From a virus, in the IMG/VR virus record IMGVR_UViG_3300028654_000009: 64,000 nt of DNA. One strand, written 5' to 3'. Positions 35,390-64,000 of this stretch are shown here, in pieces; positions within the stretch are counted from its first letter, which is position 1; every line of letters begins with the position of its first letter. The notes beneath the pieces were generated by a model. The model saw only the letters and a list, made by a program, of their open reading frames with translations. It did no database searches and was not told the origin of the DNA. The position numbers and the translations under genes are program-made.

Positions 35390-35396
35390 AACATCG

Positions 35397-35467
35397 GGGA
35401 CCCGGCAGGATTCGACCCTGCACCTCAGGCCTTAACGGCTTGAGTTCTACCATTAAACTACGGGTCC
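35397..35467 (-). tRNA. Aberrant tRNA, nominal anticodon UUA (or shifted Asn GUU)
   Basis: Perfect acceptor stem GGACCCG/CGGGTCC; loop CGTTAAG; T-loop GTCGAAT. Confidence 0.6.
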
Positions 35468-36282: not shown

Positions 36283-36425
36283 TTTATACCCTTGCGTAGC
36301 GGGGGCCCGAATAAAAACACACGCATCTTACCAACCCGGTGGCCAATCCAGGGCAAGCGGTCCTCCGGCCGGAGGACCTTTGCGGCGTGTCTGCATCTTG
36401 ACCCGGTTTTGTGCCGGATCGAAAG

Positions 36426-36774
36426 TGGAGATGTGGGGAGTCGAACCCCAGTGTTGAAGAGCTACAAACTTGCTACTACGTGTGTTTCTCGCGCTTTATT
36501 TTCGTCACCCGGGACCCCACGAGAAGGAGCCTGGACGCTTTGTCCGCCTATTCTCGCCCCAATCATGGCAGACAGGTTCTTGGGGCATATCCCTGTGAAT
36601 GACCAATCCCTAGAGTACGGGCACCCTCTAGTTCATGGGCTCGGCGGTTCTTTAGGCCGCGAGAGCGAACGACTGCTCGTTAGCAGGTATTACTTTGTCC
36701 GTTTTTACGAGGCCTCGGACACCTCGACACGCAACTCATTTTTCACTTACTTCAGTCGAAACCAGTTCATCCCC
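36426..36774 (-). ncRNA. ssrA: tmRNA, tag peptide ANEQSFALAA*
   Basis: 5' GGGGATGAACTGGTTTCGAC, 3' GGTTCGACTCCCCACATCTCCA with G3.U70 pair; tag ORF at 36652-36684. Confidence 0.97.
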
Positions 36775-41451: not shown

Positions 41452-41457
41452 AAGATT
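41452..41457 (-). promoter_or_regulatory. Late-promoter box AATCTT (leadered)
   Basis: Overlaps sheath stop; 39 nt before ATG 41412. Confidence 0.6.
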
Positions 41458-43993
41458 ACCCCGCCGAACTTACGACAGGGGTGGCCAAGAAATTGATAGT
41501 GATGAAGTAGATCGCGCCTGCCAGCTTGATTTCGACCGAGCAAGCCATGGCGGGCCCACTGATCTTGATGACCGGCTTCCTGTAGCCCTTGGGAGCGTCA
41601 TCAGACGCCGCCAGGAGTTTCAGCCGCTTCAAGTCAGACAGAATCCCCTCAAACGCCGTCAAAGCGATAGAGGCAGAGATGTCCGCTACGGACTGACCCA
41701 CAAACATCCCCTCCATGCGAGTCTGGCAGGTGGTGTTTACCTGGTCAGCGTCATACATGGCCTGGATGCTGTTGTACACGAAATTGTTGTCCTTCGTGTA
41801 GGTGGTCTGGTCCGAAACCCAGCGGTACCCACCCGTGATATCCCGAACGATAGGACAAAGACCGTAGGTCAGGGCTGCCTCGGCACTCGAATCGAGCTGG
41901 TCATTGTAGTCGCCGGCAGCCTGGAGGGCTCCCGAGATGTCGATGAACTTGGACACGATAGCCCGGTAGAACCCAGCAGCCTGCATCCCGGCCGCCTTGA
42001 CGGCCGCCATCCAAGGCTGGAACTGGACGATGGTGCCGACCGAGTTTACCTGCTTGATGTCCTGGAAGAACATCGCGCATCGGCTGGAGGCCATATTGCC
42101 GGCCTTTGTCTGGGCGTCCTTGAAGGTTCCCCGATACGACAGGAAGGCCTGCCGAGGGCGACGGCGCTTGAGCTGGCTCATCTTAAGCACATGGGAGCGA
42201 GCCAGGGCATGAACCGCGTCAATGGTGTAGGTCGAGGACGAATCAGTCGTACCGGCCGCAATGTCCAGCGTAGCGTCCCTGGAGAACAGTGGCACCACGA
42301 AATTCCCTCGGACGCCCTCCAGAGCCGTAAAGGCTGCGGACACGTCTGCGGCGAGCGTAGGGCCCTTGGCGCCACCAGCGAGGAAGGCCATGCTGTTGAC
42401 GTCCGGAAGGCCCGAGGGCTGGATTGCAGGGGAAATCGCGCCCACGGTCACCAAAGTGCTGCCCGCATTCACGTCACGCTGGAAGTTCACGCCGTCAGCC
42501 TTGATACGGCCGGGACCGCTAACGGTGTTGACGAAGGTGGCTCCGATGCCCACCGCAGTTACCTGGTCGAGGTCGAGCGGCGAGGCTTGACCCAAAGACA
42601 CGGACCCAGGGGCCGCAAAATACAGCGACTGGGTGTTGATGTAGGCCACCAGGTCATTGATAGTGGCGTAGTCCGACAGGCGAATGCTCAGGTTCGTGCC
42701 ACCCGAAGAAATCGAGGTGGTGAGGAAGCCATTGGAGACCGTGGCGGTCGCAGTCGGCACCATAGATCCACCGTTGAACCCCAGGGTCAGATAAATGTCT
42801 CCGCCCGTGATGACATCCTGGGAGAGGCTATCGCTCTGTCGAGCGACATTGATATCAACAGCCTGCTCGGCCGTAGAGGTGATAATTTTCCCCGCGCCAG
42901 CAACAGAAATCATGGGGCTGGTGGAAGCAGGAGGAGTGGAAGAGGCTCCGCTGAACACGAAGCAGAGGCCTGAAACCGAGGTGACTGGAGACGTGTTCCC
43001 GTTCGAAATTTCCAGCGACTTGCCCACGCCCTGGATAGCCGCGCCGGCTTCCAGAGTGATAACGAGCGGCGAGAACGCCTGGATGTCCGTAGTGGCGGCA
43101 ATCGTCTGTCCAGCCTGAGTGGTAGGAGCAGAAAGAACAGTTCCCGCGCCGGCAGCATCCAGCAGCTTATAAGCATCAATCCGAGTGCTGGTGGCAGCCG
43201 TAACAACGTACGTTCCCTCGTTGTTGGCAGTCAGCGGGCTGGTGGAGGGCAGATACAGGATATCGCCCACCGTAGGAACGTTTACGAAAGTATTGCCAGC
43301 GACAGTAAAGTGAACTTGATTACCGGAGTCCACGGTGATGGCCAAGGTACCAGCCGCAGAGGTCAAGATAGAGCGATTGACGCCTCCCGTACAGGCTACC
43401 CCGGCGAGAGCATCAATAGCCGTCTTCATCGCCGAAGGCAGCATGCCAACCGTCAAAGTCGCGCTTACCGGCACGCCACCGTTAACACCGAACAACGGGT
43501 TGGCAGTCACCTGCGGAGGGCAGATGATGAGGGGGCCCGTGGTCGGGAGAGATTCGGCAGTAGAGATGGTCGTGGTGTAGCTGATAAAATTGCCCGTGCG
43601 ACCATTGCTGGCGTCCAGTAGGTAAGCATAAGGAGACGCACCCGGAGCGAGCAAAGTAGCCTTCGCGCGGGTCGGGGTGTTGGTCTTTACGGCAATGATA
43701 CTGCTGAAGCTCCCCGAGATGTTGGGATCGTTGGCAGCCGAGGCGGCGCCACGAAAGGCGTCCACGAGCGGGCCCGAGCCATACTTCTTGGTGAAGTCTA
43801 CGATCTGGTCGGGGCCGAAAGCGTTCAGAGAGAGGTCGGACTCGTCGCTGAATCGAGGACCCGAATCAGACTCGCCAACAAGGAGAATAACCCCCGAGGT
43901 GCCGAGGTTGGTCGGGTTGTTCTGGACCTGAACTTGTCCATATGCGCCAGGTACAATCAGTACCCCATTGTCGGTAACATCTTGCTGTGCCAT
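41456..43993 (-). CDS. Tail sheath protein with large insertion domain
   Basis: LIVPGAY, VILLVGESDSGP, YGSGPLVDA, WMAAVKAAG, RWVSDQTTY, IYFITINF. Confidence 0.9.
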   Translation of the reverse strand: MAQQDVTDNGVLIVPGAYGQVQVQNNPTNLGTSGVILLVGESDSGPRFSDESDLSLNAFGPDQIVDFTKKYGSGPLVDAFRGAASAANDPNISGSFSSIIAVKTNTPTRAKATLLAPGASPYAYLLDASNGRTGNFISYTTTISTAESLPTTGPLIICPPQVTANPLFGVNGGVPVSATLTVGMLPSAMKTAIDALAGVACTGGVNRSILTSAAGTLAITVDSGNQVHFTVAGNTFVNVPTVGDILYLPSTSPLTANNEGTYVVTAATSTRIDAYKLLDAAGAGTVLSAPTTQAGQTIAATTDIQAFSPLVITLEAGAAIQGVGKSLEISNGNTSPVTSVSGLCFVFSGASSTPPASTSPMISVAGAGKIITSTAEQAVDINVARQSDSLSQDVITGGDIYLTLGFNGGSMVPTATATVSNGFLTTSISSGGTNLSIRLSDYATINDLVAYINTQSLYFAAPGSVSLGQASPLDLDQVTAVGIGATFVNTVSGPGRIKADGVNFQRDVNAGSTLVTVGAISPAIQPSGLPDVNSMAFLAGGAKGPTLAADVSAAFTALEGVRGNFVVPLFSRDATLDIAAGTTDSSSTYTIDAVHALARSHVLKMSQLKRRRPRQAFLSYRGTFKDAQTKAGNMASSRCAMFFQDIKQVNSVGTIVQFQPWMAAVKAAGMQAAGFYRAIVSKFIDISGALQAAGDYNDQLDSSAEAALTYGLCPIVRDITGGYRWVSDQTTYTKDNNFVYNSIQAMYDADQVNTTCQTRMEGMFVGQSVADISASIALTAFEGILSDLKRLKLLAASDDAPKGYRKPVIKISGPAMACSVEIKLAGAIYFITINFLATPVVSSAG

Positions 43994-50216: not shown

Positions 50217-51251
50217 TTAAACCTTGTTGGAAGGCGGAACGGGCTGGGTAGCAAACCCATTCAGCTGGAAGTCCTCGTCGGCAAAAATGCCGTCGGATTC
50301 GTCATCAAAAGCAGAGAAAACCGGCTCAATCTGGATCGACTCAATCCGGTCATTGATAAACTTCGGCCAGCTCTGGCGAACGAACCCCGTCACGTTGACG
50401 AATCGGGTCCAGGCGTTCTCTCCGTTACCAAAGCGGAGGTCCTTGGCAAACTGGCTGCTAGAAATGGTGCTTCGCTCGAACCCTCGGGACTCCAAAAGGG
50501 TCTGCTTGTATCTCAGAAGACAGAACACAACAATCGAGTGGAGCCAGGTCAGGTAGAAAGGGTCTCCGTGGGAATGGGCACCAACCCTGTAGGTCTCCCG
50601 AAAATTGAGTGACTCAACTTGTTGGACCAGCCTGGGATTGTTGCCTCGAATCGTCGCGCCTCGGAAGTCGTCATTGGTACCTATGTCAACCTGGATGATT
50701 TCTCTCCCGATTACGCCTACGATAGGGTACGAAACGCCGGTCTTCGAAATTATCTGCATACGATTTGTCACGAGCAGGGCGTTTGATACGTCCTCTGGGA
50801 GCGTCAGCTGGCCCGTAGTGGGGTCCCAGGCCGTAGGAGTGAAAGGGCCAGCCAGGGCCGGCCAGGTGGCTTCTGAGGTCTCGCTAGGAACGTAGTGGAC
50901 GTCCCCTAGGGTTACGTCGGTCTCAACACTTTCGACCAGCGAAATCGAAATCATGGCGTAGTCGGGACTATCAAACCGATAGTCCATCACGACAGGGATG
51001 TCTGTCCGAAGGAACCAGCGCTTGGCTTGGTCGATCTCTTTTTGGCCGTAGGTTTGGGAGGTCAGGTCGTCGCGACGAAGCGAGGCGAAGCAATAGTCCA
51101 GCAAGTACGGATTAGCTCGGAGGTCCGCGATTGCCTCGACCAGGGCAGTGCGGATTATGATATCGCTCTGGTGGATACCAACAGCTTCGGTGGTATCAAA
51201 ATTCGGTTTGATAACCGAAAGAGACTGGTTGAGGTCTTGGGGGTCAAGCAC
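50217..51251 (-). CDS. Neck/tail-completion structural protein
   Basis: AATCTT box 5 nt upstream; tail-terminator-like pattern; structural context. Confidence 0.55.
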   Translation of the reverse strand: MLDPQDLNQSLSVIKPNFDTTEAVGIHQSDIIIRTALVEAIADLRANPYLLDYCFASLRRDDLTSQTYGQKEIDQAKRWFLRTDIPVVMDYRFDSPDYAMISISLVESVETDVTLGDVHYVPSETSEATWPALAGPFTPTAWDPTTGQLTLPEDVSNALLVTNRMQIISKTGVSYPIVGVIGREIIQVDIGTNDDFRGATIRGNNPRLVQQVESLNFRETYRVGAHSHGDPFYLTWLHSIVVFCLLRYKQTLLESRGFERSTISSSQFAKDLRFGNGENAWTRFVNVTGFVRQSWPKFINDRIESIQIEPVFSAFDDESDGIFADEDFQLNGFATQPVPPSNKV

Positions 51252-52168: not shown

Positions 52169-52981
52169 TTAAATCTTCGAGGCTATTCGCTCGATGAGAT
52201 CCGGCGTGATGTGTGACTCGACCTCCTCTAATGCCCAAGCGTATACCGAATCGAAGATGTGAACGGGCTGAAGACCCGGATGGAAGAACCCGTCTGGGTT
52301 CTTGGATGTGGCCACACGAAAGGTTAATACACTTTTTTTAGTGCCCCCAGAAGGTGTAGCCGACTGATACACAGAAACGCCCCTAAGGAACGGTATGCCT
52401 GTCTTGCCCTGCTTAACACCTCCCACTGGTCCGTGACCCTGCCCTGGACCTTCTCCGCTCTTGAGAGGTTTGTCCTCGATGTTGAACGAGTGAATCTTGC
52501 CCATCTTGGGACGGCCTTGTGCGTCCCGCTCGATTTTGGCTAGCGGAATCTTCCGCTTCTTCAGCTCGGCCCGAACGGTATCCACGGTCTCTTTGGAGGA
52601 CTCTGGAGTGTTCGTAGGGCCCTTCCCGGGGCCCACGTGCTGGAATGGTACCACCAGGTACTTATGCCCGTCCTTCGAGGTCTTGGCCGAAGGGCTGTTC
52701 AGCAATGCGTCCAGCATAGAATGCGGCTCCATGCCGTCGTCGATCCATACCGAACCTTGTGCAAGGGATAGGTAGTGCTCCCCGTTGCCTTCGTGGGTAA
52801 GACTCAGGGCTTCCACAAACATTTGCCTACGAGAATGCAGACGTTCGTTTGCTAGTTCTAAAGCTTTGGCGTGTACCTGTATGCTGAGGTCATTGGCGGC
52901 TTGCTCGGCTTCTTGCTTGATGATGTCTGCTAAGTCCTTGAAGCCAGCCAGGCAGCTGAGGTCGATATTGATGTTATACAT
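52169..52981 (-). CDS. Neck/tail-completion protein (HK97 gp10-like role)
   Basis: KDGHKYLVVPF, TFRVATS...FFHPG; TAATG-coupled to upstream giant ORF. Confidence 0.6.
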   Translation of the reverse strand: MYNINIDLSCLAGFKDLADIIKQEAEQAANDLSIQVHAKALELANERLHSRRQMFVEALSLTHEGNGEHYLSLAQGSVWIDDGMEPHSMLDALLNSPSAKTSKDGHKYLVVPFQHVGPGKGPTNTPESSKETVDTVRAELKKRKIPLAKIERDAQGRPKMGKIHSFNIEDKPLKSGEGPGQGHGPVGGVKQGKTGIPFLRGVSVYQSATPSGGTKKSVLTFRVATSKNPDGFFHPGLQPVHIFDSVYAWALEEVESHITPDLIERIASKI

Positions 52982-55900
52982 TACGGGCTATTCGGCTCCC
53001 TACTTGAGACAGCGTGACTGTTGGCCCCTCCGCCACCCGCGCCTCCGGGCTCAAGTCCCTGAATGAGGCCGGCTGTAACACCTTTCCACCCCACCGTGCC
53101 GTCCGCATGTTGCACCTTCAAGTGTCCATTGTGTAGCGAGCCCACAGGCAGCTCCAGGTCCTTGTGGGTCGGAGGCATGGACTCCTTGTTTAGCTCCTTC
53201 TCGGGCGGGAATTTCTCGTTGGGTTCGATTTCTTCTTTGGCTACATGGTGGGAGCAGTCTGGGCCACAAATCAAAAGGTCGTCCTCCTTCTCGGCCGGGA
53301 ATTCGCCCTTGAGGGTGTATTGGTAGGGCCCATGCCATTTAACGCCCCGGTTATCAACATAGTCGTCTGGCTCTGGGTTGTAACTCATCCCGTGCTTCTC
53401 GGCCAAGGACTGATGAACCCTGTGAGCCATTTCAGAATGGCTGCCTCCTTGAACGTCTTTGATCCCAAGCTTGTTCTTGGCGTGCGAGTAAAGAGCCTCG
53501 TACATGGCCTTCCCCAGACCTCGCCCCCGGAGACTGCTGCTCAGAAAAGAATGGGGGGTCAGCATCCCTTCCCATTTCTCTTTTTCCGCACCTGTGCCTA
53601 GGCTACGGTTGCGATAGTGAACGTCCGAATGGACATCTCCGTCTGTCATATGTTGAGCATCGTTGTGCAGCTCGGCAACGATATGATGGACATTGTACTT
53701 CCCTCCGACTCCATGCCGGCGCTCCTGCACAACCAGGCTGTGGGTCTTGCGCATCTCCTCGGGCAGCAGGTGTGAGTAGTTGTAGTTTCTGGCTACCACC
53801 GTCCCATGGAGGGTCCTGTCCACGTTTTGATACTTACCCACAGGAATGTCCTTGATGGCCTTCTCGACCTTTTGGTCATGACAGCCCTTCGGGCAAAGCA
53901 GAAGCTTTTCTTCGTCAACGTTCGGAGCCAGCTCGGCCTTGAGGGCATACTTATAAGGCATGTGTGAGATGTTCGAGCCATGGATTCCGGAACCGTCGGG
54001 ATTGATAGGATCGACTTTGTAGTCCAGGCCGTGTGTTGCCGCCAAGCTTCGATGTACAGCACTCGCCTGCGCAGAATGCATCCCTCCGGCAACCCCCTCG
54101 ACCCCCAGCTTGTTCTTTGCGTGGGAATACGTGGCTAGATACATCGCCTTCCCGAAGCCTTTCCCGTGGTGGGCCAGATCGAGGTCAGCATGGGGCTCGA
54201 TGTGCTTATTTTTGATATACCCCTGCACATTCCCGACCAACGGATTGTTGGACGATTCGTCGTTGATGTACGTGCTGAGGTAGTTTTTCGAAGGGTTGTG
54301 GCGGACGAACATCTTGAAGTTCGAAGGCGTACCTTGTGGGAGCAAATGGGAGTAGTCGTGTAGGTGGACGTCGTTGCCATTGGCGTCTTGGTAGGTGCTC
54401 ATATGTTTGCCGGTAGGAACGTCGGCGATGGCTTTCTCGATCTTCTGGTCGTGACAACCAGGAGGGCAAAGCAACAAAGTTTCCTCATCATGATCTGGGG
54501 CTAGCTCGCCTTTGAGTTGGTACTGGTAGCCGGCGTAAGGGTAACGTGTGGCCGAGATTTCAGGATCGTCAGAACCGTCCTCGGGACGAAGGACGTAGGG
54601 AACGTGTTCCAGGCCGTGTTTCTTCGACAGAGCGATATGGACCGCTTCTGCTTGTGGAGAATGAGGTCCGCCCTGTACGTGATCGATCCCCGCCACATGT
54701 TTTGCATGGGCGTAAAGAGCCTCATACATAGCTTTACCTAAACCCTGTCCGCGAAATTGCTCGTCTAGATCGGAGTGTGGTTCAAGCCTCGTAAATTTGG
54801 CGAAAGGATCGTACCCCTTAAAGGTTCTGACACTGTTGGGCGGCCGCACGTATCCAGTAACGGCTCCCACATATCTGGGGCGGTCTCGTCCTGGTCTCGT
54901 CAATCTCGCCACTATCCGCTCTTTGCCGTTTTCATTGTTTTGGAAAGAATGATGAACGTGGAGCGACAGGCCCTGCTCTTTTTGTTCTGGCGTCAAAAGA
55001 TGGCCGTAATCAAACTTCTTCTGAGTTACCGGGTCACCTGAATCATCGTCACCGTTAGGAAATGTGGTTTCCCCTTGAAACTTGCCCGGCTTCAGGTCAG
55101 AGATCGCTTTCTCGATCTTCTGGTCGTGACAGCCGGGCGGACAGAGCAACAGAGCCTCTTCATCATGATCGGGGGCCAGTTCATCTTTGAGTTGGTAATG
55201 GTAGCTATCATACGGGTACTGCTCCAAAGGCAGACCGAATCCGCTCTTGGGGTTTCTTTTCTTTGAAACGTAGTTTAGCCCCATTTCACCGGCTAGCGAT
55301 CGATGAACCCTGTCCGCCGCCGCTGAGTGTTCCCCTCCTACGACATGGTTCACCCCCAAAGTATGATGGACATGAGCATAGAGGGCCTTGTAAGCCGCCT
55401 TGCCCAGCCCCTTGCCACGATATTCCTTCTCTAACTGGGAGTGGGGCTCTAGGTATGGCTCCCCTTGGAGTTGATCTTGGAATTCGTACTCGGCATTTGT
55501 GGACGGATTAATGTGCCCATGGGCTCCACCGAGATTCTGCTGCACCCCGTAGTTGGATTTGCTCAGCCTTGCCTCGACCATAGATGGGAATTGTTTGTGC
55601 CCCTCCTTTCTCTGATGCACCTTCAGCGTAAGCCCCATCGAGCGCTGGGACGGGGTCAAAAGGTGGTTGTAGTCATAGACTTGGTTTACGATGTTTGTTT
55701 CAGGGATCGGTCGGTCTTCTTCATGGGGACCCGGAGAGATATCAGAGATAGCCTTCTCGATCTTCTGGTCATGGCAGCCAGGAGGACAAAGCAGCAGGGC
55801 TTCCTCATCATGATCTGGCGCTAACTCGCCTTTGATCTGGTAGTCGTAGTCCATATATGGATAACGCTGTACATGTTCGTCGTCCGGGTCTTCACCGTAT

Positions 55901-58278
55901 GCTTCCCTTTTTTCTGGGAAGTACCACAGCCCGTGTGCAACTGCCAAGGCTCGATGAACCTTAGAAGCGTCTTCTGAATGGACTCCCCCGGTTACGCGAT
56001 CGACTCCAGCTATGTGTTTAGCGTGCGTATATAACGCCTCATACATTTTTTTACCCAACCCCTGACCACGGTAGCTTGGTCCTAGAGAAGAATGGGGTTC
56101 TATAGAGCCTTCTACAATGTTCGCGTGTACCTGTCCCACACTACGTAACGGTGACGATGTTTCTGGCTGCCATGACCCACTCCCTGTGCTGTGATATACC
56201 CGAGATTTAATCTCGTCCTGCCGCCCAGGATGTACCATGTGCGACACTATCAGTTTGTAGCCCTGTTTTGTGTGTTCCGGGGTTAACATATGACTATAAT
56301 CATAGTTCTGCTGGGTAGAGCCTCTGGAGTTCAAAGGTGTGGGCTCCCCGACCGTCTTACCCGGCTTCAGGTCGGCGATAGCCTTCTTCAGCCCCGCCCG
56401 AACCACGTACGCCGGCAGGTGTGTCACGCCAGCGGCCTTAGCCGCCTCCACGCGGTGTGTCCCGTCCTTTACGGACCACGCCCCTGGGTTGCCAGGAGCG
56501 ACCACGATAGGGGGAACCTCGTCGCCAGCTCGGAGCATTTTGTGGTAAAGGGAATACCGGTCTTTATTGGCAGCCCCTCCACTGTTGCCCCCCTCTAGCA
56601 AAGCGACGGGCACCATAATCCGCTTCAGAGACTTGGTGTCGCCGTTGGTATAGTGACTAGCTACCGACGCCAGGTAGTTCTGGTCGAATGCTTGGCGGTC
56701 TGGGTGGTTCTTGCTGGGGATTTTTAGAGCCGACGTACCCCAGTCATCGGACGTCCATACTTTTGGGCGTTTTTCAGCCTTCTCCAATTCTTGGTCTCCT
56801 GTCTGGAGACCTCTCGCCAGCCCCACCACCGATTGAACCAAAGAAAGAATCGACTTGTACGTCTCGGGGAACTGCCCCTTCAGTTGGGTAATGACCGGTA
56901 ACTGCCCCTTCAGTTGGGTAAGGGACTCGGCCACACGCTGCTTAAGACTCTCCATCTCTTCCGAATTGCGAGCCGCAGACGCCCGGTCTTGCTTGTCCTG
57001 GGAGCCGGCCAGCTCATGGAATTGGTCTTCGGCGTCCTTGGCCTGGTGACTCATTTCGGGGGCGGGGCCCTGGTCGGCAATCGAATGTGCGACCTCTCCT
57101 TCGGAGTGTTCTTGCGTCTGAACGTGCGGGTGGACCTTCTTGGGGGGCGCCACCCCATGCTGGTGGCCGCCATGGGCGGCCGAGCCTTCGTTTTCGGCTT
57201 TGGTCATCTTAGGGATGGGCACCGTGGAGCTAGTAACGAAAAACTTGGGGTCGGAATTGACCTTGCCGTACATCGCCGTATGTGGGGGTCGCTTGGGTGG
57301 CGTTATAAGTTTGCGGATGTCGTGATCTGTAAGATCGCCATCGCTCTCGCCCATGTGGCCGAAAGCCGGGATCACAGGATTGCCAAATTGATGGTGCGTA
57401 GGGGCATACTTCATACGCCCCAAAAACATGTGCTGGTGTGAGCCAAACGGATGGTTGGTATACCCATGAGCCAAAATAACATTGGTACTCAACTTCGGGT
57501 TCTCATTAAGCCTGTCACGCAAATCGACTTCCAGTGGCGGGCCCTTCCAGCTTCCCTCTTTCCTTCCCCATTCGCCATCATCGAAAGCCATGCCCCCAAA
57601 TGGATTACCGTAAGCCTTGTTTATGGTATGAAGCTCGTCTAGACCGTGCGAGGGGTGCTCAAAGTCCTTGTGGTACTGGTCGTTGCCGGCCGATTTCCAT
57701 CCCTGCATCTCCAAAATCCCCGCAGCCTTCTCAGTGTCGGGGTGACCTGCCGGTAAGTAGGTCGTCGCGCGATACCTAGTTGCAGGCTGAGTGAATAGAG
57801 GGTCCTGGTCCCCAAAACTCTTGGCCAGCCCAATCTGGGGGCTCAGGTACTCGTCGGCAATTTTCTCGTCTTCCGTCTTGGGCTTATTCGCCTCGGCTAG
57901 GGTTTGGGGGACCGTTTCGTCGAAGAGCCGGACTCTATCGCGACCTTCTATTTTTCCTACCAAAAGGGCTTGCCCAGCTTCAGACATACGTCTCCCGATG
58001 CCGATAGTCAAAGTGGCTCCGGTTGCAGAATGATACTTCTGGCGGACGGATTCGACTTCTCCTAGTGCCGAGACCGGGATCTCGGCTAGATAACACTCAT
58101 CTCCCCCTTCCTCGACGACAGAGCCGCCGTGCTCAAGAGCCCAAGACACAAGAATCTGATTGCCAGCCTCGATCCTCTGGTTGATTCGGCGCACCTCTTC
58201 AACGTCATCTCTCTGGATGCTAGCTCCGATGAGATACCCGATTCGATCACCGTCGCAGGCTAGGAACAGTTTATCCAT
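52981..58278 (-). CDS. Modular polyprotein: mCpol-like cyclase + unknown domain(s) + ParB-like domain + 5 GNAT domains
   Basis: DGDRIG...GGDE; PPIVV...DGTHR; five (R/H)GxG(L/F)GKxxY motifs; repeated linker KxELAPDHDEExLLLCPPGCHDQKIEKAI; likely start ATG 58278. Confidence 0.85.
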   Translation of the reverse strand: MDKLFLACDGDRIGYLIGASIQRDDVEEVRRINQRIEAGNQILVSWALEHGGSVVEEGGDECYLAEIPVSALGEVESVRQKYHSATGATLTIGIGRRMSEAGQALLVGKIEGRDRVRLFDETVPQTLAEANKPKTEDEKIADEYLSPQIGLAKSFGDQDPLFTQPATRYRATTYLPAGHPDTEKAAGILEMQGWKSAGNDQYHKDFEHPSHGLDELHTINKAYGNPFGGMAFDDGEWGRKEGSWKGPPLEVDLRDRLNENPKLSTNVILAHGYTNHPFGSHQHMFLGRMKYAPTHHQFGNPVIPAFGHMGESDGDLTDHDIRKLITPPKRPPHTAMYGKVNSDPKFFVTSSTVPIPKMTKAENEGSAAHGGHQHGVAPPKKVHPHVQTQEHSEGEVAHSIADQGPAPEMSHQAKDAEDQFHELAGSQDKQDRASAARNSEEMESLKQRVAESLTQLKGQLPVITQLKGQFPETYKSILSLVQSVVGLARGLQTGDQELEKAEKRPKVWTSDDWGTSALKIPSKNHPDRQAFDQNYLASVASHYTNGDTKSLKRIMVPVALLEGGNSGGAANKDRYSLYHKMLRAGDEVPPIVVAPGNPGAWSVKDGTHRVEAAKAAGVTHLPAYVVRAGLKKAIADLKPGKTVGEPTPLNSRGSTQQNYDYSHMLTPEHTKQGYKLIVSHMVHPGRQDEIKSRVYHSTGSGSWQPETSSPLRSVGQVHANIVEGSIEPHSSLGPSYRGQGLGKKMYEALYTHAKHIAGVDRVTGGVHSEDASKVHRALAVAHGLWYFPEKREAYGEDPDDEHVQRYPYMDYDYQIKGELAPDHDEEALLLCPPGCHDQKIEKAISDISPGPHEEDRPIPETNIVNQVYDYNHLLTPSQRSMGLTLKVHQRKEGHKQFPSMVEARLSKSNYGVQQNLGGAHGHINPSTNAEYEFQDQLQGEPYLEPHSQLEKEYRGKGLGKAAYKALYAHVHHTLGVNHVVGGEHSAAADRVHRSLAGEMGLNYVSKKRNPKSGFGLPLEQYPYDSYHYQLKDELAPDHDEEALLLCPPGCHDQKIEKAISDLKPGKFQGETTFPNGDDDSGDPVTQKKFDYGHLLTPEQKEQGLSLHVHHSFQNNENGKERIVARLTRPGRDRPRYVGAVTGYVRPPNSVRTFKGYDPFAKFTRLEPHSDLDEQFRGQGLGKAMYEALYAHAKHVAGIDHVQGGPHSPQAEAVHIALSKKHGLEHVPYVLRPEDGSDDPEISATRYPYAGYQYQLKGELAPDHDEETLLLCPPGCHDQKIEKAIADVPTGKHMSTYQDANGNDVHLHDYSHLLPQGTPSNFKMFVRHNPSKNYLSTYINDESSNNPLVGNVQGYIKNKHIEPHADLDLAHHGKGFGKAMYLATYSHAKNKLGVEGVAGGMHSAQASAVHRSLAATHGLDYKVDPINPDGSGIHGSNISHMPYKYALKAELAPNVDEEKLLLCPKGCHDQKVEKAIKDIPVGKYQNVDRTLHGTVVARNYNYSHLLPEEMRKTHSLVVQERRHGVGGKYNVHHIVAELHNDAQHMTDGDVHSDVHYRNRSLGTGAEKEKWEGMLTPHSFLSSSLRGRGLGKAMYEALYSHAKNKLGIKDVQGGSHSEMAHRVHQSLAEKHGMSYNPEPDDYVDNRGVKWHGPYQYTLKGEFPAEKEDDLLICGPDCSHHVAKEEIEPNEKFPPEKELNKESMPPTHKDLELPVGSLHNGHLKVQHADGTVGWKGVTAGLIQGLEPGGAGGGGANSHAVSSREPNSP

Positions 58279-58861
58279 TGGGGAGCCTCGCACCCTTACG
58301 GCTGTTTTCTTCCACAGAAAGCGGCCTCAGGTTTGTATAGTGATTGACTCTCAAAAATCCTTCCCTATCATTCTCTAGGTCTACGGAAGACAGAGGTATG
58401 ATGTGGTCGATGCTCCAGACTGTTCCGTAGTTCTCCCAGGTCCACCCGGATTTGAATTGGGATTCAAGGTGGACCCTTGCTTGTTCTCCCGTGCACCCCA
58501 TATCTCTAACCGACGATCCCGCCCTGCTCCCCCTTTTGATAGCTTTCACAATTCTAGATCGGAGGTTGCATAGTATCCTAAATCCGGGGTCTATTTTTTT
58601 TCGAGCGATACGATATTGGTTGTTACTGTCAATCTCTTTTTTACGATTTCGCTCGTAGTGTTTCTTCCTGTTCGCTACAACCTGTTCCGGATTCTCTTCT
58701 TTCCACCGTTTCACACTAAGATATACTGTTCCCGAATTTTTGATCCGATATTGTTTGGCATAAAGGGCCGCACAGAGTTTGCAAGGATTTCCTTTTTTGC
58801 TAAATTCAATGATAGGCTTCTCGACCTTACATTTCGAACAAATCTTCTGTTGCGGCACCAC
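58271..58861 (-). CDS. HNH homing endonuclease
   Basis: CSKC...CKLC; WTWENYG..WSIDHIIPLS...HYTNLRPLSVEENSRK; AT-richer than flanks. Confidence 0.9.
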   Translation of the reverse strand: MVPQQKICSKCKVEKPIIEFSKKGNPCKLCAALYAKQYRIKNSGTVYLSVKRWKEENPEQVVANRKKHYERNRKKEIDSNNQYRIARKKIDPGFRILCNLRSRIVKAIKRGSRAGSSVRDMGCTGEQARVHLESQFKSGWTWENYGTVWSIDHIIPLSSVDLENDREGFLRVNHYTNLRPLSVEENSRKGARLPNG

Positions 58862-58904
58862 AATCTCCTTGACTTACCAAAATTTGATAGCTAATATAAA
58901 CCGA

Positions 58905-59741
58905 ATGAAGCCTCAAGACTTAGCCATCCTGCCATCCCCGCGTATCGCAAGTTCCTCTTTGGATAGCGGGGGGCGGCTTATTGTTATTGGTGACGTGCAT
59001 GGGTGCCTGGACGAGCTTGTGTCTCTTGTTGAAAGATTGGGCCTACGATCCACCGATAGAACGGTTTTTGTTGGTGACTTCGTCGATAGGGGTCCTTGCT
59101 CTGGTGAAGTGGTCTCCTGTGTCAAATTCAGCTGCGACGTCGGCCTGTCCAGTGCTGTGCTTGCGAACCACGAAGAAGTCGCCGTTCGCTGGAGGGCCCA
59201 CGAACTGGGCGTCAAAGCCGACCCGGAACACTATCGCAATCCGATGGCCCAAAAGCAAGGTCGGAAGGATACCGACCAGGCGCTGACAGACGACCAGGTC
59301 CTGTGGCTTGCCAGGCTGCCCGCCATTATCAAAGTCACTACTCCGGGTGGGGTTCGCCTTATCACGCACGCGGGGCTGCTTCCTGACGAAACTGGGCGCT
59401 ACCACCAGCCCACCAAAGCTCTCATCCGCAACCGCTACCTCAGGCAGCGACCGGACGGTCTCTGGAGGCCCACGGGCAGCCTCTTCCACGGCCCGGAAGA
59501 CAGATTCTGGACGACCCTCTGGACGGGGCCCAGGGTCATCTACGGGCACGAAGTCGTCGCCGACAGGGCTACCCCTCGGGTAGAAAACAACACGTACGGG
59601 ATCGACACTGGGTGCGTTTTCGGGGGTCGTCTGACAGCCTACGTCGAAACGTTCGAAATGGACGGCTCGTCCAAGGTCGAATTCGTCCAGGTCCAGGCCC
59701 AGCGCGAATACTACGCCTATAATTCCACCGCAACGGTTTGA
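58905..59741 (+). CDS. Metallophosphoesterase (PPP/Pnkp-phosphatase/ApaH-like)
   Basis: GDVHGC, GDFVDRGP, NHE, HAG, YGH, IDTGCVFGGRLTA. Confidence 0.9.
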   Translation: MKPQDLAILPSPRIASSSLDSGGRLIVIGDVHGCLDELVSLVERLGLRSTDRTVFVGDFVDRGPCSGEVVSCVKFSCDVGLSSAVLANHEEVAVRWRAHELGVKADPEHYRNPMAQKQGRKDTDQALTDDQVLWLARLPAIIKVTTPGGVRLITHAGLLPDETGRYHQPTKALIRNRYLRQRPDGLWRPTGSLFHGPEDRFWTTLWTGPRVIYGHEVVADRATPRVENNTYGIDTGCVFGGRLTAYVETFEMDGSSKVEFVQVQAQREYYAYNSTATV

Positions 59742-59771
59742 CATTCCAGAAAAGAAAGGTAAGATTGAGAC

Positions 59772-60263
59772 ATGAACCTCACCTCTTTTGCGAATTCGGT
59801 CACCCCCGGAACCGCCCTGATTCTTCGGGGGTGTCAGGGGGCCGGCAAGTCGACTCTGGCCCACCTGGTAACCGGGCGTCTGACCGGCAAGATTTGTAGC
59901 GCCGACAAGTCCAGGATCGATACTTACGGCACCTACGTTTACAAGCCCGAGGAGAACGGTCTTCATCACGCCAATTGCCTCAAGGCCTTCATCTCTGCCG
60001 CGCAGAACGACACCCTCCGCGAGAAGGGCGTGTTGGTCTGCGACAACACCAACGTCACGGTCGAGGAGATCACGCCGTATCGGGCCATCGCTACGGCCTT
60101 CGGGTGGGCGCCGCTGGTCGTCACCCTGATGCCCAATGACCCATTCCTTGCTGCCGAGCGGCAGCTGCACGGAGTGCCTGTCAAAAAGGTCATCAACGTC
60201 GCAGACCGTGTCTGTGACATCAAGCTTCCTTCAAACTGGGCTCACATCACCATTCAGGACTAA
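59772..60263 (+). CDS. P-loop kinase (AAA_33/polynucleotide kinase-like)
   Basis: LRGCQGAGKST, SAD, DNTN, RQLHGVP. Confidence 0.85.
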   Translation: MNLTSFANSVTPGTALILRGCQGAGKSTLAHLVTGRLTGKICSADKSRIDTYGTYVYKPEENGLHHANCLKAFISAAQNDTLREKGVLVCDNTNVTVEEITPYRAIATAFGWAPLVVTLMPNDPFLAAERQLHGVPVKKVINVADRVCDIKLPSNWAHITIQD

Positions 60264-60277
60264 CACAAAGGAGACAC

Positions 60278-60529
60278 ATGCGCATCCATGCCGAGAAGAC
60301 CGCCGAACGAGAAACCTTCGCTTACACCTATTTCCTGGACAACCCCCAGGGCTCCGTCAAGGAGCTGAACGACAAGCTGTCAGCCAAGGACGGCCGTCGC
60401 CTGAATCTGGGGCGGGCGTACGCAATCAAGGCCGCTGCTGCCCAGCGCTTGGGCATTCCTCCCAAGGTGTCGACCAAGAAGGTCAAGCTGTACCCAATCG
60501 GGACCTCCCAGAGCGAGGATACTAAGTAA
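60278..60529 (+). CDS. Hypothetical basic protein
   Basis: AAGGAG SD. Confidence 0.6.
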   Translation: MRIHAEKTAERETFAYTYFLDNPQGSVKELNDKLSAKDGRRLNLGRAYAIKAAAAQRLGIPPKVSTKKVKLYPIGTSQSEDTK

Positions 60530-61272
60530 TGAGCTACCCCGGCCTCGTGCTGGCTGGCCATGCTGGGGCCGGGAAAGATACTGTCGGACATTTCATCGCT
60601 GACCGCTTTGACGGGACCTGTACCGCCTTTTCGGCACCCCTGAAAATCCTCGTAAACAACCTGTTCGGGTTTAGCTACGAGGTCCTGTATGGCGAGTCCG
60701 AGCTACGGAATCTCATTGACCCGTGGTTCGCCACACCAGACGGGCAATCTCACATCGGCAGCCTTCGAACCGGCGAAGACTATTTCCGGAAGGCGGTAGG
60801 CTTGCCACTGAAGGGTGGGCCCTTGCTTCACCAGGTCATTGAAAGCGAGATCAAGCCCTTCATTTCAAAAAAGGGGGGCCTGAGCGCTCGCAAGGCTCTG
60901 CAGGCGGTAGGTACCGAGTGGGGACGCGCCATCCAGACCAACGTGTGGGCCGACGCGGCCATGAGGGACTCAGACCTATGCCTCCATGATGGAGCCCGGC
61001 TCGTGATTCTGACGGACGGGCGCTTTGTGTCTGAGCTGGTGGCAGCAAAGGCCAGGGGATTCAAAATCTGCAAGGTCTTTCGGCCAGACTACGAAAAGGT
61101 GGCTCACCGCTCCGAAACCGAGCTAGACACCGTCCCGGATTGGTGGTTCGATTACATCATCCGCAACGACGGAGACCAGGAATCGCTACTTTTGAAGGCG
61201 TACAGCCTTGGGCTGCACCTGACCAGGTGGTACTACTCACGTGGCTCTTACGAGATGGGAGAATACCGATGA
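60529..61272 (+). CDS. Deoxynucleoside monophosphate kinase
   Basis: GHAGAGKDT, FSAPLK, RKALQAVGTEWGR, DGRF..E, HRSE. Confidence 0.9.
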   Translation: MSYPGLVLAGHAGAGKDTVGHFIADRFDGTCTAFSAPLKILVNNLFGFSYEVLYGESELRNLIDPWFATPDGQSHIGSLRTGEDYFRKAVGLPLKGGPLLHQVIESEIKPFISKKGGLSARKALQAVGTEWGRAIQTNVWADAAMRDSDLCLHDGARLVILTDGRFVSELVAAKARGFKICKVFRPDYEKVAHRSETELDTVPDWWFDYIIRNDGDQESLLLKAYSLGLHLTRWYYSRGSYEMGEYR

Positions 61273-62384
61273 AAGCATTTCCGACTCTGTACAAGCGTTC
61301 GAACACGGGGGCCATTCAACAATGGTCCATTGCCGTCGCAGGCCCGGCAATCACCGTGACCCACGGCCAGGTCGGGGGTAAGCTGCAGACGGGGATTGAT
61401 ATCATCAAGGAGGGCAAGAACCTGGGCAAGGCCAACGCCACGACCGCTGAAGAGCAGGCGGAGGCGGAGGCACTCGCCAAGTGGACCAAGCAGAAGGAGA
61501 GGAATCGCTACGTCGAAGACATTTCTCGTGCCGAAGGTGGCGAAACGGACGCGGCCGGCGGAATCCCTCCGATGCTGGCCCAGCCCGAAGAAGCCGGGAT
61601 GAAGAAAATCAAGTTCCCTGCCCATATCCAGAGGAAGTACAACGGCAATCGCTGCTTGGCGGTGATCGAAAACGGAGAGGTCTCTCTCTGGAGCCGAAAG
61701 CAAAAGCGGATTCTCGGCATGCCCCATATCGAAGCCGCCTATCGAGAGGCTTTCGCTAGGCTTGAAGGGGTCACTATTCTCGATGGCGAGCTTTACCGCC
61801 ATGGCTGGTCGCTCCAGAAGATCAGCGGTTTTTGCCGCAAGGAAGGGACCAAACCGGGCTTCAGGCAAATCAAGCACGTCGTTTACGACCTGCCATCTTC
61901 AGACGAGCCGGAACACAAGCGGAGAGCCGACCTCGCTTTTCTGTTTGCGGCAGTCGACTCCGATTGTCTGGAGCTGGCCCCTACCGAGGTCATCACGATG
62001 AGGGAAGCTGTCAAGCCCACGCACGACGCATATGTGAGCGAAGGATATGAGGGAGCCATTCTACGCAACCTCGAAGGGAAGTATGCGGCCGGCAAGAGGT
62101 CGTATGACCTTGTCAAGGTGAAAGACTTCAAGGAACTTGAGTTCCCCATCGTTGACATCTCCGAGGGCCGGGGTAAGTTCGCAGGTAAGGCGATTTTCAC
62201 CTGCCGGGCCGAGAACGGCAAGGAGTTCGATTGTTGCGCCCCAGGCACTCTCAAGGATCGGGCAGAGTTCTTCGAGCAGGGGACCGCGCTCATCGGGAAA
62301 CTGCTGACCGTGAAGTTCTTCGAGCGCACCGAAGACGGCATGCCCTCCCATGGGGTCGGACTTGTGGTAAGAGACTATGAATAA
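61269..62384 (+). CDS. ATP-dependent DNA ligase
   Basis: PMLA, KYNGNR, LDGELY, YD, GYEGAILR, KRS..LVKVK; WGR-like N-terminus. Confidence 0.92.
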   Translation: MKAFPTLYKRSNTGAIQQWSIAVAGPAITVTHGQVGGKLQTGIDIIKEGKNLGKANATTAEEQAEAEALAKWTKQKERNRYVEDISRAEGGETDAAGGIPPMLAQPEEAGMKKIKFPAHIQRKYNGNRCLAVIENGEVSLWSRKQKRILGMPHIEAAYREAFARLEGVTILDGELYRHGWSLQKISGFCRKEGTKPGFRQIKHVVYDLPSSDEPEHKRRADLAFLFAAVDSDCLELAPTEVITMREAVKPTHDAYVSEGYEGAILRNLEGKYAAGKRSYDLVKVKDFKELEFPIVDISEGRGKFAGKAIFTCRAENGKEFDCCAPGTLKDRAEFFEQGTALIGKLLTVKFFERTEDGMPSHGVGLVVRDYE

Positions 62385-63135
62385 GGACTCGCTGGGCGAC
62401 CGCATGAAGCGGTACGAAAATGTCACCCGAAACTACCTCGTCAGGCGCACGCCGGTCATTGTCCGGCTGGACGGGAAGGCGTTCCACACACTGACCGCCA
62501 AACATTGTGTAAAGCCTTTCGACGACCACTTCCACCATGCAATGGAGAAGACCTCCATTCGTCTTCTGGAGGAGGTCCAAGGGTGTACGTTCGTTTACAC
62601 ACAGTCCGACGAAATCAGCCTGCTGCTGTTTGACTACCAAAAGCTCGATACGCAGGCATGGTTCGACAACAACATCCAGAAAATGGTGTCCGTCTCGGCC
62701 TCCATCGCTAGCGTCACGTTTTCGACCGTATTCGGGGAGCAAGGGTTCTTCGATGCCAGGGCCTTCAACCTTCCCGAGGCTGAGGTCTGCAACTACTTCG
62801 TATGGCGACAGAACGACGCAATCAGGAACAGCATCCAGGCTGTAGGCCAGGCCCATTTCAGCCAGAAGGAGCTTCACAAGCTGAACGTGGACCAAATCAA
62901 GGCCAAGCTGCTGAGCGAGCATGGCGTAAACTGGGACTTGCACATCAAGACCAAGTTCAAGCGCGGCCTGGCGGTGTCTCGGGTGCCCAATATCGTCGAC
63001 AGCGGCGTAACCGCGAATTTTGCTCACTGGATCGCCCTAGGTTATCCGAACTACAAACCTGTAGTTGACGAAGAAATCCCCATATTCTCTCAAAATCGCG
63101 AGTTCGTGGAACGCCACCTCCCAAAAACAATCTAG
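62377..63135 (+). CDS. thg1: tRNA(His) guanylyltransferase Thg1-like 3'-5' polymerase
   Basis: RMKRYE, VRLDGKAFH, YTQSDEISL, FDAR, YFVWRQNDAIRNS. Confidence 0.93.
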   Translation: MNKDSLGDRMKRYENVTRNYLVRRTPVIVRLDGKAFHTLTAKHCVKPFDDHFHHAMEKTSIRLLEEVQGCTFVYTQSDEISLLLFDYQKLDTQAWFDNNIQKMVSVSASIASVTFSTVFGEQGFFDARAFNLPEAEVCNYFVWRQNDAIRNSIQAVGQAHFSQKELHKLNVDQIKAKLLSEHGVNWDLHIKTKFKRGLAVSRVPNIVDSGVTANFAHWIALGYPNYKPVVDEEIPIFSQNREFVERHLPKTI

Positions 63136-63142
63136 GAGAAAC

Positions 63143-63553
63143 ATGACCCCAGCGCGCACACAATACCTGGTAGACGCAGCAGAGAAACTGGCACAGGTGT
63201 TGCCAGCTGACCAAAGAGACCGCTTCAAGATCGACTACATCAAGGTCATGTCGTCTTTAAACGAGACAGTGGACGCAAACATGGAGGAGCTTGAAATCGG
63301 TGTCACCGAACTGTTGGTTGCATTTTTCCCGGAACAACCTGGGCCAGTCAACGAGACGACGCTCAAGATCGTAAACGACGTCCGAAACATAGCCTACTTA
63401 TTCCACACCCTGATGGCCGGAGTCGATGTCGCCAGCATCCGCCAGTTGATTTACTCTTCGGTGCAAAAAGCCCTCGCTGCCAGCTACCAAGCGTGCCAGC
63501 AAAACGACGAAAACATCCGCGACCGAACGTCCCGAACAAAGGAGCTTTGCTAA
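63143..63553 (+). CDS. Hypothetical protein
   Basis: AGGAG SD. Confidence 0.6.
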   Translation: MTPARTQYLVDAAEKLAQVLPADQRDRFKIDYIKVMSSLNETVDANMEELEIGVTELLVAFFPEQPGPVNETTLKIVNDVRNIAYLFHTLMAGVDVASIRQLIYSSVQKALAASYQACQQNDENIRDRTSRTKELC

Positions 63554-63759
63554 TGACCTGCTGTATCTTGATTTTGGTAGTTGGGCTGGTTCTGGTTTAC
63601 ATCAGTCCTGACTGTCACTGGAGCGGATTTTTCGAGCCCGAGGACCCAGAGCGCGGCATCGTACCACCCGGGCCTGAGGATATCGAAGAGGCTAATTCAG
63701 TCCTGGAGGACAATAAATCGAACCATGGCGCTATCCTCGACGTCGAGGATCATTCTTAG
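63553..63759 (+). CDS. Small membrane protein
   Basis: TAATG-coupled; N-terminal hydrophobic segment. Confidence 0.45.
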   Translation: MTCCILILVVGLVLVYISPDCHWSGFFEPEDPERGIVPPGPEDIEEANSVLEDNKSNHGAILDVEDHS

Positions 63760-64000
63760 GCACCCCGTACACTTCAAGTACCTTCTGCACCATAGATTTA
63801 TTTGAAGTTGCGCCGAGGGCCAGCAGTTTAGAGATTCGTTCATGTGGGGTTGACTTCTTCAGGCCTTGGGCTCGCAGGTACCTTTCTTCATGTGCCGTCA
63901 AAGGTCGTACGTTTTTGAGAGATTCCGGAGTCATGGCAGCTGCGTAGTTACGCATGTGCCGCATTGCACTTTTGATAGCTGAGGAGGTTCGGCGAGCCAC
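63731..64000 (-). CDS. Hypothetical protein (may start outside window)
   Basis: Open frame to window edge. Confidence 0.35.
   Translation of the reverse strand: MARRTSSAIKSAMRHMRNYAAAMTPESLKNVRPLTAHEERYLRAQGLKKSTPHERISKLLALGATSNKSMVQKVLEVYGVPKNDPRRRG

Follow-up and report, generated by a model that had tools for sequence, protein, structure and literature searches.

A phage-encoded mCpol palm domain heads a putative polyvalent protein in the neck/tail gene module of large Mx1-like phages

What does a large phage do with mCpol, a domain that has so far been studied only as the bacterial half of the Panoptes system, described in 2025-2026? mCpol was reportedly first described by Burroughs et al. 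2015. The question is raised by 64,000 nucleotides (nt) of viral DNA from the IMG/VR record IMGVR_UViG_3300028654_000009, here called the window, with positions counted 5' to 3'. According to the list of open reading frames (ORFs) and their translations, the longest ORF of the window, 52981..58293 on the minus strand, is open from a GTG at 58293; its product is designated P0001. An earlier note, made from the letters alone, had quoted a peptide from 57920-58278 as an mCpol domain. This peptide is the N-terminus of the ORF, and the range corresponds to residues M6 to about V125, the whole palm domain. P0001 residues are numbered from the GTG, whereas residue numbers of the family are counted from M6.

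The palm domain occupies 57913..58278 on the minus strand (P0001 residues 6-127, with DGD at 14-16 and GGDE at 63-66). The Pfam profile mCpol PF18182 matches residues 10-122 with an E-value of 5.2e-11 and 43.4 bits against a gathering score of 26.4, and the match spans profile positions 1-112 of 114. With the NCBIfam model mCpol NF033576 the domain reaches 31.1 bits, which is under the cut-off of 40, while its sibling P0019 scores 49.5 and thus lies above it; the shortfall is a matter of a stricter threshold and not of a different fold. The sole sequence matches in the PDB are the Panoptes mCpol proteins 9mnr (OptS) and 9nwn (mCpol), which align end to end. In this alignment D14 and D65 of P0001 fall on Asp6 and Asp57, the catalytic residues of KpOptS (PMC12657218). 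An AF2 model built from 56 relatives (pLDDT 93), with helices at 123-130 and 136-145, gave OptS/mCpol structures as its best Foldseek matches (TM-score by target 0.82-0.89, root mean square deviation 1.4-2.3 Å), so that the closest fold is indeed that of a palm cyclase. Other palm families fared less well. Cas10 palm 2 (PF22335, Cas10-Cmr2_palm2) reached 20.7 bits in Pfam, below its gathering score of 27, neither GGDEF (PF00990) nor GTP cyclohydrolase III gave a Pfam match at E<=1, and PADLOC returned weak matches only (CARF_HEPN_mCpol, E 0.0015; Cas10, E 0.022). The comparison of mCpol with GGDEF and GTP cyclohydrolase III that the earlier note had proposed was therefore decided in favour of mCpol.

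Both acidic motifs are intact in P0001 (D14/D16 and G63-G64-D65-E66). Among the 56 aligned relatives, D9, D11, G14, G59, D60, E61, Y82, G93, G95 and K109 are invariant, and the acidic residues are retained in 159 of 161 inspected sequences, the exceptions being the phage Mx1 and the metagenomic member P0160. The near-invariant pair of metal-binding aspartates and the GDE hairpin indicate, at the level of sequence, selection for catalysis. Together with the Pfam match above threshold and the PDB matches, the invariant residues bear out the assignment to an mCpol-type palm with both motifs preserved, and the domain is apparently a working mCpol, i.e. a catalytically competent nucleotide cyclase. 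Complex prediction furthermore yielded a symmetric mCpol homodimer with a score of 0.63 (best of three controls, 0.00). For comparison, 20 of 30 proteins whose structures are same-chain pairs attain this mark, as does 1 of 23 with single-chain structures. Agreement between the runs extended to 100% of contacts, partner pLDDT was at least 90, and the GGDE hairpin lay in the interface. This result may reflect resemblance to OptS, which has been solved as a dimer/tetramer.

The phage domain shares with the Panoptes OptS/mCpol proteins (types I and II; KpOptS 9mnr and 9pd0, mCpol 9nwn, PF18182) the two catalytic acidic positions and a catalytic core of equal size, and like them it is predicted to form a homodimer. 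Several features set the two groups apart. Panoptes mCpol is a bacterial, stand-alone protein of about 120 amino acids (aa), whereas the phage copy is the N-terminal part of structural-module proteins of 300-1765 aa. The phage domain is only 21-23% identical to KpOptS and carries a canonical GGDE hairpin as well as an additional helical extension of 30 residues, both of which are missing from OptS; the lack of a canonical GGDE motif in OptS has been pointed out before (PMC12657218). In Panoptes, mCpol forms a two-gene operon with an S-2TMbeta effector (OptE) or a CARF-TM protein. The phage gene is instead flanked by an HNH endonuclease gene and a gene for a neck-type protein; these neighbours recur in related loci, and neither of the two in the window matched an effector-type family. 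Panoptes is also host-encoded and often located near CBASS, in contrast to a copy that sits in a phage genome. With Cas10 palm 2 and GGDEF domains the phage domain has in common the RRM-like palm, the GGD(E/D) hairpin, the N-terminal metal-binding aspartate and catalysis across a two-fold interface, but it remains below their sequence thresholds and has no sensor, I-site or Cas10 accessory domains.

The gene for the carrier protein was delimited as 52981..58278 on the minus strand (1765 aa). A GAGG precedes the ATG at 58278 (M6) by 7 nt, the end of the endonuclease gene before it overlaps this start by 8 nt, and the starts of relatives coincide with it, so that the ATG can be taken with near certainty as the true start. 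The gene call on contig Ga0265323_10000007 of the Joint Genome Institute (JGI) has the identical start. This metagenomic contig (137,734 bp) matches window positions 56236-64000 identically except for base 56874, in codon 474 of P0001, which reads CAG (Gln) in the window and TAG in the contig. Owing to the TAG, the gene is called there with 468 aa and stops just past the middle helices; the contig itself terminates within the gene, shortly before the GNAT repeats. The TAG may stem from a sequencing error, or it may represent a nonsense allele or a site of read-through.

Comparison with P0019, a minimal family member of 360 aa, revealed three collinear blocks. The first (P0001 3-171, 42% identity) comprises mCpol and the helical extension, the second (373-508, 48% identity) contains an EHSEGEVA motif and long helices, and the third (1710-1769, 62% identity) is a small C-terminal module. 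In the model of P0019 these parts follow one another as palm, floppy linker, long helices, second floppy linker and small beta domain. The window protein thus appears, from these alignments, to be a constant frame with two insertions at about residues 161-372 and 509-1689.

Directly after the palm, the helical extension (57814..57912, minus strand, residues 128-160) ends with EYLSPQIGLAK↓SF, where the arrow marks a putative cut site. HMMER matches of the family reach into this extension up to about residue 152, and its residues E136, K139 and Y144 are nearly invariant. The first insert (57178..57813, minus strand, residues 161-372), which lies between blocks shared with P0019 and is missing from minimal family members, had no Pfam, PHROG or PDB sequence match; some other members also bear inserts between the palm and the middle module. 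The conserved middle module (56770..57177, minus strand, residues 373-508) ends with ELEK↓AEK. It is 48% identical to residues 150-278 of P0019 (E 3e-24), corresponds to long helices at 171-291 in the P0019 model and is kept in Logan and IMG/VR relatives. The idea that these helices span a membrane, as a fused S-2TMbeta-like effector would, was discarded on account of their conserved charged residues and the long soluble helices modelled. A search of BFVD with the whole core model gave no assignment for either the helical or the C-terminal module.

The second insertion begins with a ParB/sulfiredoxin-like domain (56374..56769, minus strand, residues 509-640), which contains DGTHRVEAAKAAG. It matches phrog_1033 (E 9.7e-5) and only weakly Pfam ParB_N (E 0.28), a profile that matches three of 54 siblings with a best E-value of 5.9e-7. 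The region shares 30% identity with a segment of the 'NUDIX hydrolase' protein of Mx1 (1479 aa), and no PDB sequence match was obtained for the ParB and first GNAT region. Five tandem GNAT acetyltransferase-like modules follow (53227..56373, minus strand, residues 641-1689). They match Pfam Acetyltransf_1 in three stretches (E 6.2e-16) and phrog_1249, and contain five copies of the motif A signature R/HG.G(L/F)GK. Four full copies of near-identical linkers with cysteines and histidines separate the modules (ELAPDHDEE.LLLCPPGCHDQKIEK↓AI.D). An acidic, His-rich linker with five copies of a DDCQWC motif in a distant member, encoded on an ENA scaffold of 167,830 bp (L007:10001-11266), recalls these linkers (LLCPPGCHDQK). 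Such Cys/His linkers may bind metal. The protein closes with the conserved C-terminal module (52984..53226, minus strand, residues 1690-1770; LPVGS..NG.LKVQHADG..GWKGV.AG.IQG and SSREP..), which is modelled as a small beta domain. It is 62% identical to the C-terminus of P0019 (E 5e-17) and was found in 90 of 150 representatives as well as in the Mx1 and IMG/VR loci.

The borders of these modules share a further feature. In 125 of 150 members a sequence EYL-x-K-A/S/G follows the mCpol module, and in 82 of 90 members the C-terminal module is preceded by hydrophobic-x-K-x, mostly L-D/E-K-A/G. Family-wide, L[DE]K[ASG] is 4.3-fold enriched over shuffled sequences, while the version with arginine shows no enrichment. 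The window protein contains 13 such sites where 5.5 are expected, and each border between its modules bears the motif (LAK↓S, MTK↓A, LEK↓A, LKK↓A and four (I/V)EK↓A). Judged by its position, L-x-K↓A/S/G looks like a protease cut site. Cleavage, which we infer here, would fit the precedent of DdrB of phage P1, which is processed and packed into the head (PMC5512222).

A HMMER search with residues 1-165 against 1.84 billion cluster representatives detected 831 clusters at E<=1e-3 and 590 at E<=1e-10. In nearly all of these, mCpol is located at the extreme N-terminus of proteins of 300-1300 aa; the phage domains are 40-50% identical among one another and form the most constant part of the carrier. 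By Pfam, the 54 long members contain mCpol in every case, GNAT in 17, DUF5661 in seven, ParB_N in three and a PI3/PI4-type kinase in one. Insert 1, the ParB-like domain and five GNAT modules make up the largest load seen in the family. Other searches were less productive. Near-identical DNA was not found in 50,697 GenBank phage records, where by protein Mx1 is the sole phage relative of the window. Word-based searches with residues 1-560 against proteins of similar length, and with the palm against proteins of stand-alone size, returned no homologues. A query with the single protein gave no related loci in IMG/VR, and a tighter family alignment gave nine. In UniProt and BFVD one full-length member is present and listed as uncharacterised. 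No copies were found in 185,579 species genomes by a scan with only two peptide patterns, which is weak evidence of absence from bacterial genomes.

The only cultured member is the Mx1 carrier WNM70340.1 (L001:5998-7404), a protein of 468 aa annotated as hypothetical. It is orthologous to P0001, with an N-terminal palm (27% identical), middle helices and the C-terminal module, lies at the same site upstream of neck, terminator and sheath genes, and contains neither ParB nor GNAT inserts. Its active site is degenerate, with SID in place of DGD and GAVG where GGDE would be, so that the domain is probably inactive, while the remaining carrier is kept. P0160 shows a similar loss of acidic residues in a retained protein. 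Mx1 has been reported to be insensitive to a CBASS/type III-B island of M. xanthus (PMC11506125). This insensitivity is not to be credited to mCpol catalysis, because the Mx1 copy lacks the acidic residues; for the same reason Mx1 was discarded as a model for cyclase function.

That the domain is encoded by a phage, as the earlier note had assumed, was confirmed by the surrounding genes, which include those for a tail sheath, RNA and DNA ligases, Thg1, a CCA-type nucleotidyltransferase, a dNMP kinase and homing endonucleases, and by a structural module syntenic with that of Mx1. Upstream of the carrier gene lies an HNH/endonuclease VII-like gene (58271..58861, minus strand; phrog_1035, E 3.7e-17), whose stop overlaps the carrier start. 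A homologue is found at another place in the related locus L016, consistent with a mobile endonuclease. Downstream, the carrier gene is translationally coupled by a TAATG stop/start overlap to the gene for a neck-type protein of 270 aa (52169..52981, minus strand; phrog_16819). The 270-aa product is 40% identical to that of the gene after P0028 in locus L002; as a lead only, it resembles neck proteins of the HK97 gp10 type. The same neck gene stands directly downstream of the mCpol gene in L002, Mx1 and each of 11 further loci that were tested. Next comes a tail-terminator or sheath-stabiliser-like gene (50217..51251, minus strand, 344 aa), whose counterpart holds the corresponding place in Mx1 and 10 of these 11 loci. 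Its resemblance in the ESM Atlas to SP10_terminator and T4 gp15 is likewise to be taken as a lead only. The tail sheath gene (41456..43993, minus strand; phrog_279, E 3.6e-23) forms the downstream end of the same leftward operon, and its product is 40-48% identical to the sheaths of Mx1 and other relatives.

The order of carrier, 270-aa protein, 344-aa protein, a further protein (683 aa in the window) and sheath is collinear with Mx1, and carrier, neck and terminator genes, with the sheath gene where the locus extends that far, recur in Logan, ENA and IMG/VR contigs. At 12 related loci, as at that of the window, the carrier gene is placed immediately before the neck, terminator and sheath genes. 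Four IMG/VR contigs with the carrier have lengths of 168-169 kb, similar to that of Mx1 (169.6 kb). The carrier of L007 is preceded at a distance of 7.5 kb by a gene for a major head protein, with sheath and tube genes on its downstream side. Because this gene order recurs across related loci, the carrier appears to be a core gene of the morphogenesis region in large (about 168-170 kb) Mx1-like myoviruses and not a sporadic accessory.

Several other genes of the window and of related loci deserve mention. The 683-aa late protein (44006-46057, minus strand), between the terminator and sheath genes, has an N-terminal DUF3293 match that is weak and below threshold (E 3.8e-4), contains seven [LIVM]xK[ASG] sites where 3.1 are expected, and keeps its N-terminal 160 residues in Mx1 and other relatives. 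By these features it may be another processed cargo protein. A transfer RNA (tRNA) with the anticodon UUA, an ochre-type suppressor, was detected by ARAGORN at 35396-35467 (minus strand; Rfam tRNA, 52.6 bits), and a full-length transfer-messenger RNA (tmRNA) with the tag peptide ANEQSFALAA at 36423-36774 (minus strand; Rfam RF00023, 144 bits, E 1e-57). Genes for tRNA-Ile(UAU) and tRNA-Tyr adjoin them. A 456-aa ORF on the opposite strand is probably not a gene because the tmRNA overlaps it. A 496-aa HNH homing endonuclease is encoded at 36974-38464 (minus strand). A set of nucleic-acid repair genes at 58905-63135 (plus strand), 32992-34083 (minus strand) and 18752-19828 (minus strand) comprises a metallophosphatase, a P-loop kinase (AAA_33/PNK-like), the dNMP kinase, an ATP-dependent DNA ligase, a Thg1-like 3'-5' polymerase, an RNA ligase and a CCA-type nucleotidyltransferase, and looks like a kit for the repair of tRNA damage. 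In the loci L002 and L005, genes for HD_4 (a RelA/SpoT-type hydrolase), NUDIX and GmrSD_N proteins lie a few kb from the mCpol gene. The lineage seems to be rich in nucleotide-acting enzymes.

Polyvalent proteins, as defined by Iyer et al. 2017, combine several unrelated catalytic domains in one chain; here mCpol, a ParB-like domain and five GNAT modules share 1765 aa. Since variable, unrelated enzymes are inserted into a constant three-part frame, the carrier can be regarded, on the strength of its domain composition, as a polyvalent protein in this sense. Known polyvalent phage proteins with GNAT, ParB and, rarely, GGDEF domains adjoin virion genes (PMC5512222). Examples are the GGDEF protein of an Acetonema prophage and P1 DdrB/DarB, and the combination of cyclase, ParB-like and GNAT domains in a giant chain beside virion genes is found here as well. 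Their placement among virion or late genes also has its counterpart in a carrier that is TAATG-coupled and heads an operon running from the neck and terminator genes to the sheath gene. For such proteins, processing and delivery with the DNA have been predicted, and the cyclase domain has been predicted to interfere with host nucleotide signalling, as would be the case here. The differences lie in the composition. mCpol is mentioned zero times in the 2017 survey. It is constant in the phage family, whereas GGDEF is a rare passenger in known polyvalent proteins, and the frame of mCpol, helices and beta module differs from the MuF, vRNAP and MPTase anchors described (PMC5512222). A five-fold GNAT array with Cys/His linkers is also unusual among polyvalent proteins. 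mCpol and polyvalent proteins are each known, but a polyvalent family that is headed by mCpol and belongs to the morphogenesis module of phages was not described in the literature searched.

Taken together, we consider it on balance probable, judging mainly from sequence, that the carrier is a late, probably processed and virion-loaded polyvalent protein, whose mCpol domain makes a (cyclic) oligonucleotide that perturbs host signalling. The analysis shows fold, intact active site, family, architecture and synteny; late expression, cleavage, packaging, product and target we infer. Different phages have inserted different enzymes between the three constant parts. The carrier would be made late, alongside the particle proteins, be cut at the L-x-K↓A/S/G motifs of the module borders and be loaded into the virion, and its enzymes would enter the next host together with the DNA. 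Virion delivery is plausible because mCpol heads a late multi-domain protein in a neck/tail operon. In the new host, an mCpol homodimer would condense nucleoside triphosphates into a cyclic di- or oligonucleotide that perturbs nucleotide signalling, be it immune or physiological, while the GNAT and ParB modules may act on host proteins and DNA.

A number of observations weigh against this explanation. Mx1 and P0160 keep the protein without its acidic residues; the role of the carrier is therefore independent of catalysis, and the palm may have an additional function in structure or dimerisation. The distant member on L007 has no C-terminal beta module. Three of the 13 candidate cut sites fall within GNAT motif A, the enrichment of the motif is inflated by homology among the members and among the five repeats, and the K-A after EYL may, in view of the model, simply be part of a structural helix. 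Moreover, a head protease and a receptor or effector for the nucleotide product were not identified in the 64-kb window.

The domain could also belong to a late set of enzymes that stays unpackaged in the cytoplasm and whose messenger acts in the producing cell, for instance on lysis timing, host reprogramming or superinfection exclusion, so that co-transcription with the neck genes would be incidental. The late-looking operon would place the enzyme in the late phase in any case. The search of BFVD with the core model, furthermore, also returned phage cyclases of the GGDEF type without an evident structural role (from Bacillus phages G and SP-15 and from uncultured phages). A virion-associated carrier is nevertheless the better fit to the strict, lineage-wide adjacency to neck and terminator genes with its translational coupling, and to the constant, non-enzymatic middle and C-terminal modules with their border motifs. 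The joining of unrelated enzymes in one chain is, in addition, a hallmark of delivered polyvalent proteins (PMC5512222). We hence regard an unpackaged, cytoplasmic role as rather unlikely.

The earlier note had proposed a decoy. In this reading, an injected mCpol would top up the nucleotide which silences the Panoptes effectors (OptE or CARF-TM) while sponges or phosphodiesterases act, or it would make a competing nucleotide and thereby jam effectors of CBASS or type III CRISPR systems. Among characterised proteins, the domain is closest to the Panoptes synthases, and the products of these synthases hold their effectors off (PMC12657218, PMC12657230, PMC13577387). The authors of the Panoptes studies expect a phage answer to the system, none is described in the literature searched, and Iyer et al. 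predicted that cyclases in polyvalent proteins interfere with host nucleotide responses (PMC5512222). A decoy must, however, match the ligand of the host effector, and a recent capture from the host would be expected, whereas the phage domains make up a separate, deep clade: they are more similar to each other (40-50% identity) than to KpOptS (21-23%), and their GGDE motif and C-terminal extension are absent from OptS. Fixation as a core structural-module gene across hundreds of divergent phages also fits poorly with the countering of a sporadic guard. Sponges and phosphodiesterases were not identified in the window, which is part of the genome, by a search that was not exhaustive, and the Mx1 copy is dead. 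The deep clade, the GGDE motif and extension absent from OptS and the fixation in a structural-module gene argue for a general, lineage-wide role over a decoy matched to a host. What stands of the earlier reading is a true mCpol palm, encoded by a phage in a late neck/tail operon; the decoy or jamming role, though compatible with the data, we consider quite improbable.

Slightly less probable still is a palm without a role in signalling, which would serve as a dimerising or assembly module of a neck-associated protein or would transfer nucleotides to a protein or nucleic-acid end in priming, capping or end protection. Such a role would account for the retention of the protein with a degenerate active site in Mx1 and P0160 and would agree with the confidently predicted symmetric dimer and with a domain that is the most constant part of the protein. 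It is at odds with the invariance of the aspartate pair and GDE hairpin in almost all members, which points to selection for catalysis, and with the nearest relatives by sequence and fold, which are cyclases that release free cyclic nucleotides; the domain also has no additions for binding a template or primer. That the phage bears a Panoptes-like guard or addiction module of its own, in which the mCpol product silences a phage toxin until rival phages deplete the nucleotide, is hardly credible: all characterised mCpol proteins do work by holding a toxic partner silent, but no S-2TMbeta or CARF-TM type effector adjoins the gene, which at each locus inspected is flanked by genes for an HNH endonuclease and a neck protein, the helices of the middle module are charged and not membrane-like, and the two-pattern scan found no copies in bacterial genomes.

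With the virion-loaded polyvalent protein as our preferred explanation, what is new here is an mCpol domain whose active site is, to judge from the alignments, under strong purifying selection and which appears to be fixed in a structural-module protein of hundreds of uncultured large phages. To this family the window adds its largest load, a clear three-block frame, family-wide statistics on the border motifs and the catalytic degeneracy in Mx1. Whatever its role, the carrier represents a modular frame for cargo delivery with constant ends, swappable enzymes and candidate cut sites. It likewise introduces a new set of mCpol enzymes, probably with different products, and a five-fold GNAT array. 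It may be speculated, as an unlikely though far-reaching case, that the whole lineage delivers a ready-made cyclase that floods the cell at entry with an immune-type nucleotide and thereby silences guards such as Panoptes during the action of sponges or nucleases, or desensitises or competes at CBASS, type III and other effectors. Such a mechanism would, if true, be the first counter-defence to act by producing a signal instead of destroying it, and a battery of acetyltransferases would be delivered along with the cyclase. Should the enzyme indeed be delivered in active form, phages would make and not only destroy immune-type nucleotides, and signalling defences and their guards would have to be reinterpreted.

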